A stretch of DNA of 3,402 nucleotides from a virus (taxonomy: Duplodnaviria > Heunggongvirae > Uroviricota > Caudoviricetes), in the IMG/VR virus record IMGVR_UViG_2778261300_000007. One strand, written 5' to 3'. The notes under the pieces were generated by a model. That model worked only from the letters and a program-made list of their open reading frames with translations. It had not been told where the DNA came from and did no database searches. Both the position numbers and the translations under genes were made by a program. Positions within the stretch are counted from its first letter, which is position 1, and each line of letters opens with the position of its first letter. Positions 1,796 to 3,402 of the stretch are shown one piece after another.

Positions 1796-2014
1796 TCACA
1801 GTCCCCATTGTTTGTTCTTAAGTTCGATCTCCTCCTGGCAACTTGCACAAGTCCGACAACCCTGAACGGCCAGGCGTCTTCGTTCATCTATCGGATCGCC
1901 ACACTCACAACAATGAGTGGCAGATATAGCCTGGTGGTTCAGGCGGCGCATTTTTATTGCTGTGTTGCGCTGTAATTCTTCAATTCCTGATGCTGAATCA
2001 ATGATGTCTGCCAT
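1796..2014 (-). CDS. TraR/DksA-family C4-type zinc-finger protein (72 aa), phage TraR-like RNA polymerase-binding regulator
   Basis: Four-Cys motif CECGDPIDERRRLAVQGCRTCASCQ matches the TraR/DksA zinc finger (compare F-plasmid TraR CEACGNPIPEARRK...CVECQ as recalled). Size (~72 aa) and position in a phage early-left operon are as in lambdoid TraR homologues. AGGGA lies upstream of the ATG at 2014..2012. Confidence 0.85.
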   Translation of the reverse strand: MADIIDSASGIEELQRNTAIKMRRLNHQAISATHCCECGDPIDERRRLAVQGCRTCASCQEEIELKNKQWGL

Positions 2015-2063
2015 CTTTCATTAATCCCTGAATTGTTGGTTAATACGCTTGAGGGTGAATGCG

Positions 2064-2090
2064 AATAATAAAAAAGGAGCCTGTAGCTCC
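2064..2090 (-). terminator. Candidate rho-independent terminator (minus-strand sense) between the 71-aa gene and the TraR-like gene
   Basis: On the minus strand: GGAGC-TACAG-GCTCC (5-bp GC-rich stem, 5-nt loop; plus 2076..2090) followed immediately by TTTTTTATTATT (complement of 2064..2075). The stem is short, so strength is uncertain. Confidence 0.4.
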
Positions 2091-2112
2091 ATGATGATTT
2101 TGTTTTTCATGC

Positions 2113-2328
2113 TCACCGTTCCTTAAAGACGCCGTTTAACATGCCGATCGCCAGGCTTAAATGAGTCGGTGTGAATCCCATCAGCGTTACCGTTTCGCGG
2201 TGCTTCTTCAGTACGCTACGGCAAATATCATCGACGTTTTTATCCGGGAACTGCTGTCTGGCTTTTTTGATTTCAGAATTAGCCTGACGGGCAATACTGC
2301 GAAGGGCGTTTTCTTGCTGATGTGTCAT
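2113..2328 (-). CDS. Hypothetical protein (71 aa from ATG at 2328; the ORF track gives a 93-aa version from the ATG at 2394)
   Basis: Open frame ending at the TGA at 2115..2113. The internal ATG at 2328..2326 overlaps (ATGA) the stop of the candidate 27-aa micro-ORF and has a weak GGGA upstream. The longer start at 2394 has no SD, and its extension (MHFSGSGLHILCAYACRHGTCS) is Cys-rich and atypical. Start choice is unresolved. No recognisable family motif. Confidence 0.5.
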   Translation of the reverse strand: MTHQQENALRSIARQANSEIKKARQQFPDKNVDDICRSVLKKHRETVTLMGFTPTHLSLAIGMLNGVFKER

Positions 2329-2408
2329 TGAACAAGTCCCATGTCGGCAAGCATAAGCACACAGAATATGAAGCCCGCTGCCAGAAAAATGCATTCAGTG
2401 GTTGTCAT
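2325..2408 (-). CDS. Candidate 27-aa hydrophobic micro-protein (MTTTECIFLAAGFIFCVLMLADMGLVQ), not in the ORF track
   Basis: Reverse-complement translation of 2408..2325. The ATG (2408..2406) overlaps the TGA stop of the 74-aa ORF (2407..2405) as ATGA, and its TGA stop (2327..2325) overlaps the ATG of the 71-aa ORF as ATGA. It exactly fills the 77-nt gap and has a purine-rich stretch (GAGAGAGACCAGG) upstream. The hydrophobic core suggests a single short membrane helix. Confidence 0.3.
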   Translation of the reverse strand: MTTTECIFLAAGFIFCVLMLADMGLVQ

Positions 2409-2629
2409 ACCTGGTCTCTCTCATCTGCTTCTGCTTTCGCCACCATCATTTCCAGCTTTTGTGAAAGGGATGCGGCTAACGTATGAAATTCTTCGTCTGT
2501 TTCTACTGGTAGACCTCTAAATCGTGCACAGGCTCTGGCGAAGATCGCAGAAATCAAAGCTAAGTTTGGGCTGAAAGGAGCAAGTGTATGACGGGCAAAG
2601 AGGCAATTATTTATTACCTGGGGACGCAT
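2405..2629 (-). CDS. Doubtful 74-aa ORF (hypothetical); may instead be non-coding divergent control region
   Basis: ORF present in the track, but there is no SD upstream of the ATG at 2629 and the first 14 codons are antisense to the well-supported plus-strand Cro-like ORF. The only in-frame alternative start (TTG) also lacks an SD. The C-terminal part is protein-like and its stop is ATGA-coupled to the micro-ORF, so it is not excluded. Confidence 0.2.
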   Translation of the reverse strand: MRPQVINNCLFARHTLAPFSPNLALISAIFARACARFRGLPVETDEEFHTLAASLSQKLEMMVAKAEADERDQV

Positions 2630-2907: not shown

Positions 2908-3402
2908 ATGAGAAAATTTATTTTAGCCTTTGTCATAAGTGCCTCGTTTACAGCAAATGCTGGTGTAGAGAAGTTAGGGCCGTGGATAACAAAGTCTGAG
3001 ATAAATAAAATGACTGACCAGACTGACTTTGTGGCTCTTAATTTATCACCAGATTCATATAACAAAGCAGGTACTGATCGTGCAACTTCACTGGTGTTGC
3101 GTTGTAGTGATAACAAAACAGATGCCTATTTATCATTCAATGATTATATGGGTTCGGACAACCCAAGAATTACAGTGCGGTTAGATGGCGGAAAGCCGGT
3201 CAAGAGTGTTTGGGGTGGTGGGGAAGGCGGCGATTCTGCATTTGCTCCACAACCAATACAATTTATAAAGACCTTGGCTAAGCATAAAAAAGCTATTTTT
3301 GGGTTTGAACCTTATGGATCAACTATGCAAGTAGTTGAGTTTGACTTGTCTGAGATTGATAAGGTTGTGGAAAAAATTTCACAGTCTTGCAATTGGAAAT
3401 GA
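2908..3402 (+). CDS. Exported (periplasmic/secreted) protein of unknown function with N-terminal signal peptide (164 aa)
   Basis: Strong SD (AAGGAG at 2895..2900, 7-nt spacer) before the ATG at 2908; stop TGA at 3400..3402. The N-terminus MRKFILAFVISASFTANA-G has a basic n-region, hydrophobic core and A-x-A signal-peptidase I site. The mature part has exactly two Cys (possible disulfide) and a Gly-rich loop (VWGGGEGGD). No catalytic motif recognised. Confidence 0.75.
   Translation: MRKFILAFVISASFTANAGVEKLGPWITKSEINKMTDQTDFVALNLSPDSYNKAGTDRATSLVLRCSDNKTDAYLSFNDYMGSDNPRITVRLDGGKPVKSVWGGGEGGDSAFAPQPIQFIKTLAKHKKAIFGFEPYGSTMQVVEFDLSEIDKVVEKISQSCNWK

Follow-up and report, generated by a model that had tools for sequence, protein, structure and literature searches.

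Does a short open reading frame (ORF) that exactly fills the gap between two genes of a lambdoid prophage, with overlapping stop and start codons at both of its ends, represent a gene that annotation has passed over? This question was raised by a viral DNA sequence of 3,402 nucleotides (IMG/VR record IMGVR_UViG_2778261300_000007, Caudoviricetes; the whole stretch is referred to here as the window), whose minus strand carried the left end of a lambdoid prophage of the phage 21, or icd-integrating, type. The frame in question, MTTTECIFLAAGFIFCVLMLADMGLVQ, consisted of 27 codons plus a stop, began with ATG, and was located at 2325..2408 on the minus strand; we refer to it as the micro-ORF. Comparison with related phages led us to the view that the micro-ORF is, with a probability of roughly 0.7, a genuine unannotated gene that lambdoid phages carry in their early leftward (pL) exo-xis operon, located between orf63 and an orf61 gene of 71 amino acids (aa).

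Position and distribution of the micro-ORF

The initial annotation of the window had described a 27-codon frame bounded by ATGA on both sides, which was borne out by the ORF listing and the sequence. At the 5' junction (2405..2408, minus strand), the micro-ORF start codon (ATG, 2408-2406) overlapped the stop codon of the upstream orf63 frame (TGA, 2407-2405). At the 3' junction (2325..2328, minus strand), the micro-ORF stop codon (TGA, 2327-2325) overlapped the start codon of the 71-aa orf61-type gene (ATG, 2328-2326). It had also been claimed that such a gap-filling frame was unlikely to arise by chance. When the 76-nucleotide (nt) interior of the micro-ORF was mononucleotide-shuffled, this frame was open in 29% of the shuffles. 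Multiplication of this value by assumed probabilities of 0.25 for the A before TGA, 0.25 for the A after ATG, and 1/3 for the gap phase gave an estimate of about 0.6% per gap for an open frame with both overlaps in the right phase. The arrangement was indeed uncommon but not decisive alone, and the decisive evidence for the micro-ORF is comparative.

The exo-xis region, which includes orf60a, orf63, orf61, orf73, and ea22, belongs to early pL transcription and has been studied for its influence on lysis and lysogeny (PMC8614690, PMC6213356, PMC4195576). A point missed in the initial annotation is that the micro-ORF also exists in the exo-xis region of phage lambda itself, at complement(30925..31008) of NC_001416. 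The 312 bases around it were 92-100% identical in 181 phage records, including lambda, 434, 21, 933W, VT2-Sakai, and Phi24B. A tblastn search with the peptide against related phages, which had been proposed as a check of conservation, produced matches in 176 phage records with the frame kept; the peptide was identical in 138 of them and was the same in lambda, 933W, Phi24B, 434, and 21. Moreover, the 76-nt interior was present in 3140 of the 5426 complete E. coli genomes.

Despite this distribution, none of 40 RefSeq rows sampled from the 3140 E. coli genomes with a match had an annotated feature over the micro-ORF, and it was missing from all curated and RefSeq annotations that we inspected, including the curated phage 21 record. 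Automated pipelines called it occasionally, as a 27-aa 'hypothetical protein' in nr and UniRef (981 contigs), and the peptide sequence was not found in any paper of the literature searched. A HMMER search with a 31-aa version of the peptide against 1.84 billion representative proteins found no homologues beyond near-identical copies and rare variants with a fusion or a deletion.

Substitution pattern across the overlapping frames

The DNA of the micro-ORF was also covered by a longer annotated frame. In Phi24B (vb_24B_7c) and 933W (L0070), the annotated gene was 93 aa long and started 14 nt after the micro-ORF ATG, which corresponded to the ATG at 2394 in the window. To compare the frames, we gathered 222 loci (IMG/VR, phage records, and genomes) and counted each distinct substitution once. 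A first extraction provided 210 usable loci with 89 haplotypes for the micro-ORF interior, and a second, wider one provided 201 loci with 114 haplotypes.

The first extraction contained 23 events, of which 14 were synonymous and 9 non-synonymous in the micro-ORF frame, against an expected synonymous fraction of 0.23 (binomial p=1.3e-4); 15 of the 23 were located at codon position 3. Among the variants present in at least two haplotypes, 10 were synonymous and 2 non-synonymous (p=2e-5). Over the same overlap, the 93-aa frame had 5 synonymous and 18 non-synonymous changes for all events and 1 and 11, respectively, for variants in at least two haplotypes. Both ratios were at chance level (p=0.58-0.95), and most of the changes were at codon position 1 of that frame. 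The orf63 frame, when followed over the micro-ORF interior, also stayed at chance level with a ratio of 5:18 for all events. With a permutation procedure that kept each substitution type and moved it to another site with the same base, the micro-ORF frame reached p=3e-4 and 1e-4, whereas p was about 0.9 in the other two. The expected synonymous fraction remained at or below 0.28 for a transition bias of up to 8.

The second extraction was used to place the micro-ORF among its neighbors. Its ratio of synonymous to non-synonymous changes was 14:7 (p=3.6e-5), compared to 25:24 (p=7e-6) for the 71-aa gene, 33:29 (p=1e-7) for orf73, which encodes a biochemically validated TraR homologue (PMC9239242), 11:24 (p=0.1) for orf63, whose product has a nuclear magnetic resonance structure, and 9:17 (p=0.046) for a 31-codon ORF located downstream. 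By this measure, the micro-ORF signal was comparable to those of the 71-aa gene and the validated orf73, and stronger than that of orf63. The density of substitutions was alike in all five operon genes (0.22-0.29 events per nt). Since the micro-ORF had the same density as its neighbors, the overlap region was not doubly constrained, and there was no sign of dual coding.

The individual variants pointed in the same direction. All amino-acid variants of the peptide were rare, while the common polymorphisms, at nt 9, 12, 33, 45, 72, and 81 of the micro-ORF, were all silent in its frame. One of them, a T/G/A/C polymorphism at nt 12, toggled a stop codon in the long frame just upstream of its ATG, and another, at nt 81, turned the start codon of the 71-aa gene from ATG to GTG in 10 loci. 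These patterns indicate that the amino-acid sequence of the micro-ORF, beyond the mere openness of its frame, is under purifying selection, and no indication of selection on the long orf61 frame was seen across this DNA. Therefore, we regard the micro-ORF as probably a translated and selected gene.

Conserved junctions, mosaicism, and translation signals

The conservation of both ATGA junctions, on which the initial annotation had placed weight, was confirmed. The 5' ATGA was kept in 219 of the 222 loci, behind orf63 as well as behind a Dam methylase gene. The micro-ORF TGA was kept in all 222, and the start codon overlapping it was ATG in 212 and GTG in 10. The exceptions to an intact frame were recombinants, deletions, or one error-rich assembly.

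In PhiR30_1 (L004 647-1204) and 18 other loci, a gene for a Dam N6-adenine methyltransferase (Pfam E=2e-56) replaced orf63. Homology of these loci to the orf63-type phages began exactly at the micro-ORF ATG, with the ATGA kept, and a GGGAGG Shine-Dalgarno sequence inside the 3' end of the methylase gene was positioned 4 nt upstream of the micro-ORF (-10.3 kcal/mol). In lambdoid phages, the boundaries of exchanged modules are typically located at gene boundaries. Thus, with a breakpoint exactly at its ATG, the micro-ORF was treated as a gene by lambdoid mosaicism.

In the orf63 context, neither the micro-ORF (-5.6 kcal/mol) nor the 71-aa gene (-3.9 kcal/mol) had more than weak predicted pairing with the anti-Shine-Dalgarno sequence, compared to -12.0 kcal/mol for xis. 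The combination of weak sites with 4-nt overlaps suggests coupling by termination and reinitiation. Namely, ribosomes that end translation of orf63, or of the Dam methylase gene in some phages, would reinitiate at the micro-ORF ATG, and ribosomes that end translation of the micro-ORF would reinitiate at the start of the 71-aa orf61.

Two other mechanisms were considered for this site and rejected. A programmed frameshift from orf63 into the micro-ORF frame would have little room since, upstream of the ATG, that frame was open for 4 codons only; no slippery heptamer was seen there, and the junction also works behind the Dam methylase gene. An RNA element was not supported either, as there was no Rfam match on either strand and the fold z-score was +1.6, meaning that the sequence folded worse than its shuffles. 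The same two analyses revealed no antisense RNA or RNA family at the micro-ORF site.

Predicted product

The peptide was strongly hydrophobic, with a grand average of hydropathy of 1.62 and a mean Kyte-Doolittle value of 2.42 in its best 21-residue segment (C6-V26). AlphaFold2, run without an alignment, predicted a single helix of 20 residues (3-22) with a predicted local distance difference test (pLDDT) score of 84. Both results agreed with the single hydrophobic helix proposed in the initial annotation. The peptide had no Lys, Arg, or His, and its only charged residues, Glu5 and Asp22, flanked a 16-residue core in which G12-x3-C16 formed a small-residue face. The product would be one hydrophobic helix of about 20 residues between Glu5 and Asp22, most likely inserted in the inner membrane. 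These predictions make a small membrane-inserted helix somewhat favored over other fates of the peptide.

No significant match to the peptide was found in Pfam, PHROGs, NCBIfam, or PADLOC, and neither homology to a known toxin family nor a partner antisense RNA was detected in Pfam, PHROG, NCBIfam, PADLOC, HMMER, and Rfam searches. The closest parallels are found among the small single-pass inner-membrane proteins of E. coli, such as KdpF (29 aa), AcrZ, and MgtS, which serve as accessory helices of larger membrane proteins and are routinely missed by annotation pipelines. Similar to the peptide, these proteins are shorter than 50 aa, have one predicted hydrophobic helix, and carry few or no charged residues; KdpF has no basic residues at all. 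The comparison concerns predicted features; the peptide shares no sequence homology with them, is encoded by a phage, and belongs to an early operon through overlapping stop and start codons. The micro-ORF belongs with the small hydrophobic phage and prophage proteins that annotation has missed, and it is a clean example of a conserved gene of this kind skipped by pipelines.

The initial annotation had listed toxins and division inhibitors among the possible functions, and we consider either role doubtful. The peptide resembles the type I toxins Hok, TisB, IbsC, ShoB, and DinQ in being small and hydrophobic. On the other hand, it has no homology to them, no antisense RNA gene, no structured RNA, no promoter of its own, and none of the basic residues that typical type I toxins carry. 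Because it lacks positive charges, it looks more like accessory-helix peptides such as KdpF than like these toxins. The micro-ORF shares the pL early operon with kil, but the peptide is not homologous to the lambdoid division inhibitors Kil and DicB, which are not transmembrane peptides. The most likely role would be that of a small accessory or modulating helix acting on a membrane protein or on operon partners, rather than that of a pore-forming toxin.

It has been reported that, in cells infected by Phi24B without the exo-xis region, the expression of degP (-3.0 log2), htpX (-2.4), and heat-shock genes is lower than after infection by wild-type phage (PMC10789677 Table 4). We considered this decrease as possible support for a membrane-active product and set it aside, since Orf73, a TraR homologue that activates a sigmaE-dependent promoter (PMC9239242), could equally explain it.

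Alternative explanations

Several observations weighed against the interpretation of the micro-ORF as a gene for a membrane peptide. The family was phylogenetically very shallow, with all copies at or above about 90% DNA identity and no distant homologue in the HMMER search. Because of this shallowness, the selection test was based on approximately 23 events that were not fully independent. The uninterrupted hydrophobic core (C6-A21) was only 16 residues long, and in the absence of positive charges, the topology could not be predicted and the flanking residues showed no positive-inside pattern. Furthermore, the junction was located inside the micro-ORF in two of the 222 loci, L230 and L007. 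In L007 (Escherichia sp. E1V33), a DndB-family gene (371-1438; Pfam E=1.9e-46) replaced orf63, and its stop codon overlapped the ATG of the 93-aa frame (1435-1716), cutting the micro-ORF to 17 codons. This recombinant may produce the long Orf61 together with only a 17-codon remnant of the micro-ORF. Finally, in a common form of orf61 (the P0044 type, with 344 member sequences), the gene was located 7 nt behind a 250-aa gene and there was no micro-ORF; accordingly, the peptide is dispensable for orf61 expression, and the micro-ORF is a separable module.

The alternative that survived best was that the micro-ORF is translated merely as a relay from orf63 to a poorly initiating orf61 and that its peptide has no function. 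This would be in line with the almost invariant 4-nt overlaps at both ends, with the Shine-Dalgarno sequence of orf61, which was the weakest in the operon at -3.9 kcal/mol, and with the general structure of the operon as a chain of abutting small ORFs, including the GTGA at the orf61 stop. However, an open frame alone would suffice for a relay, and neither the excess of synonymous third-position changes nor the rarity of amino-acid changes would be expected. The 31-codon ORF downstream, which could be such a relay, had almost no coding signature in the same data, and the P0044-type variant indicates that orf61 can be expressed directly after another gene. Thus, we consider a functionless relay unlikely.

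According to another view, this region encodes the N-terminus of a longer Orf61, starting at ATG 2394 (93 aa) or at a lambda-type ATG upstream, and the micro-ORF is accidental. The 93-aa version appears in the exo-xis literature (PMC8614690) and, for Phi24B and 933W, in the original GenBank annotations, the orf61 gene of lambda starts still further upstream, the L007 recombinant couples its DndB-family gene by ATGA to exactly the long frame, and 125-1695 database cluster members were called as 93 aa. Nevertheless, substitutions in the long frame were at chance level in both sets of variants, the polymorphism at nt 12 switched a stop in it, and the pairing prediction revealed no Shine-Dalgarno sequence before ATG 2394. 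The 71-aa start, in comparison, was the one used by RefSeq and its Prokaryotic Genome Annotation Pipeline (PGAP) and by the curated phage 21 annotation, and proteins with other N-termini (MTIEHNN..., MTLKEES...) all began at the same aligned Met. Published results also fit the shorter protein: in a modelling review, the three-helix fold of the 93-aa protein did not consistently include residues 1-23 and lambda Orf61 looked truncated and unstructured (PMC8614690), and over-produced Orf61 was insoluble (PMC6213356). On this evidence, a longer Orf61 with an accidental micro-ORF is very unlikely. The 93-aa reading, which the initial annotation had named as the competing one, was disfavored relative to that of 71 aa, and the latter appears to be the supported reading of the downstream gene.

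The least probable explanation was a chance open frame in a conserved non-coding spacer that is never translated and owes its conservation to recent common ancestry: all copies were very similar in DNA, there was no distant homologue and no strong Shine-Dalgarno sequence in the orf63 context, and a random 76-nt interior is open 29% of the time, but the three-base periodicity (15 of 21-23 events at position 3) would then be unexpected, as would a mosaic breakpoint exactly at the ATG, and a substitution density equal to that of the neighboring genes indicates that the region is not simply frozen.

The orf61 gene and its published readings

With the micro-ORF taken as a probable gene, the annotation of orf61 needs to be reconsidered. 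In the window, the orf61-type gene of 71 aa (phrog_303) was located at 2113..2328 on the minus strand, with the start chosen by PGAP and in phage 21 and with a coding signature. The lambda gene named 'orf61' encodes 61 aa (NC_001416 31024..30839; L003 688-873; 2240-2424 in the window). Its ATG was located 16 nt upstream of the micro-ORF ATG, in the frame of the 71-aa gene, and from there it crossed the micro-ORF out of frame, entered the first 29 codons of the 71-aa gene, and ended early due to an extra A in an A-run, which had 7 A in lambda and 6 A in 202 of 220 loci. The lambda orf61 looks like the joint result of an annotation artefact and a strain mutation, the latter cutting the true 71-aa gene short. 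The evolutionary signal supports the micro-ORF frame together with the 71-aa Orf61 over the readings with 61 or 93 aa.

The 7-A allele was also observed in lambda DNA from assemblies labelled Shewanella, Bradyrhizobium, Paenibacillus, Kitasatospora, and others (L010-L023 and more), as well as in a 'Campylobacter phage' record. These cases are almost certainly lambda contamination. A scan of genome contigs for homologues was set aside, as it returned mostly lambda DNA contaminating unrelated assemblies.

Both published genes, described as a 'pro-lytic' ORF of the exo-xis region, share their DNA with the micro-ORF. The lambda orf61 covers it completely, and vb_24B_7c of Phi24B covers all but its first 14 nt, as does its counterpart in 933W. 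However, they are read in another frame and encode another product. Because of this out-of-frame overlap in lambda, the peptide may be responsible for at least part of the phenotypes attributed to orf61. The primer CTTCATATTCTGTGTG*TTATGCTTGCCGACAT, used to construct the lambda 'orf61 frameshift' plasmid, deletes a C (PMC4195576 Table 1). This C was the first base of micro-ORF codon 18, and its deletion consequently truncates and recodes the peptide and removes the coupled stop; the 71-aa gene of lambda was already frameshifted. In the orf61 deletion phages, the annotated orf61 was replaced (PMC6213356), and most or all of the micro-ORF was therefore also lost. Thus, the micro-ORF may account, in part or in full, for the delayed development and altered lysogenisation that were attributed to orf61. 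Similarly, the insolubility of Orf61 may fit a wrong N-terminus that was read in another frame from the DNA of a hydrophobic ORF.

A more specific version of this proposal is that the 27-aa peptide is the active product behind part of the lambda orf61 phenotypes, acting as a membrane-inserted early effector on a component of the host envelope or division machinery and biasing the choice between lysis and lysogeny. We put it forward tentatively, as an improbable idea. If it were true, it would add a new functional gene to lambda and the Shiga-toxin phages. If the micro-ORF is a gene at all, the reference annotations are wrong here, both for the lambda orf61 and for the 93-aa Orf61 of Phi24B and 933W. 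It would also follow that the orf61 mutants in the literature, deletion and frameshift alike, are mutated in two genes, and that the 93-aa protein was given a wrong N-terminus in structural and expression studies. [quoted passage not shown] The interest of the micro-ORF lies in being unannotated inside these very phages and in confounding a body of orf61 work.

Other small ORFs have been described in the same region. Lambda orf2313 (31 aa) and orf2311 (7 aa) are small exo-xis ORFs reported from the ribosome profiling of Liu et al. 2013, as summarised in PMC8614690. The micro-ORF resembles them in being tiny, in belonging to the same conserved block, and in abutting its neighbors. It differs in being a third ORF with a clear coding signature, whereas the 31-codon ORF had almost none. 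The micro-ORF was apparently unreported among these extra genes, as PMC8614690 gives only orf2313 and the 7-aa ORF, and the overlapping orf61 annotation would hide it in lambda.

The 71-aa protein itself gives no usable functional clue for the micro-ORF peptide. Its AlphaFold2 model was a three-helix bundle (pLDDT 87; helices 3-26, 32-49, and 54-64), and a Foldseek search of this model against the Protein Data Bank (PDB) found nothing with E below 1. The name 'cell division protein ZapA', given to it by PGAP in many RefSeq records, was rejected because the Pfam match was sub-threshold (E=0.028) and there was neither an NCBIfam match nor a PDB neighbor. A homeodomain-like fold was not recovered. 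The 71-aa family was confined to lambdoid prophages of E. coli, its most divergent matches being an error-rich assembly (L108), a copy with an insertion sequence (L109), and prophage remnants (L231), and a codon-degenerate DNA search for diverged copies found nothing.

The window as a decayed prophage

Downstream of the 71-aa gene, the window carried further genes of the prophage on the minus strand. The 31-codon ORF, a homologue of lambda orf2313, was located at 2021..2116, and its GTG start overlapped the orf61 stop as GTGA. It spanned a hairpin resembling an intrinsic terminator (2076..2090, minus strand), at the position of the terminator t2 predicted between orf61 and orf73 (PMC4195576), and its coding signature was weak. 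The next operon member, the orf73 homologue with a TraR/DksA zinc finger (Pfam zf-dskA_traR E=1e-8; PMC9239242), was located at 1796..2014. It was followed by a DUF4222 gene (1509-1748), the excisionase gene (1133-1369), and the integrase gene (1-1143), all on the minus strand.

Upstream of the micro-ORF, the prophage was interrupted by a deletion. Only a 3' fragment of orf63 (DUF1382), its last 34-35 codons and the stop, remained at 2405..2511 on the minus strand (Pfam DUF1382 E=4e-11, residues 30-71 of a 74-aa ORF). Homology to all related phages and prophages ended at 2511, and the 3' end of the replication gene P began at 2508, followed by ren and a gene for a VasI/TagO-like lipoprotein on the plus strand. 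The deletion junction (2508..2511), with about 4 nt shared, joined the interior of orf63 to the 3' end of P. Accordingly, the 74-aa ORF (2405..2629), which had been taken for the upstream gene in the initial annotation, turned out to be a chimera of the orf63 tail and antisense P and ren sequence. The missing DNA comprised the whole immunity, recombination, and replication region, namely the 5' end of orf63, exo, bet, gam, kil, cIII, N, pL, cI, cro, O, and most of P. The window is therefore a deletion derivative that has lost pL. The junction at 2508-2511 was shared by no complete E. coli genome in our collection, none of which covered 80% or more of the window. A consensus scan upstream found a single weak promoter-like site, no more than a shuffled sequence gives. 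Since the prophage has lost pL, this particular copy of the micro-ORF is probably silent.

Two plus-strand genes beyond the junction were noted in addition. A lipoprotein-like gene of 164 aa (2908-3402) occupied a moron position after ren and matched Pfam VasI (E=5e-6) and phrog_1848; its PGAP name was 'type VI secretion system-associated protein TagO'. The ren-like gene (2588-2761; phrog_7054) encoded only 57 aa and matched residues 1-55 of the Ren-like exclusion family phrog_142.

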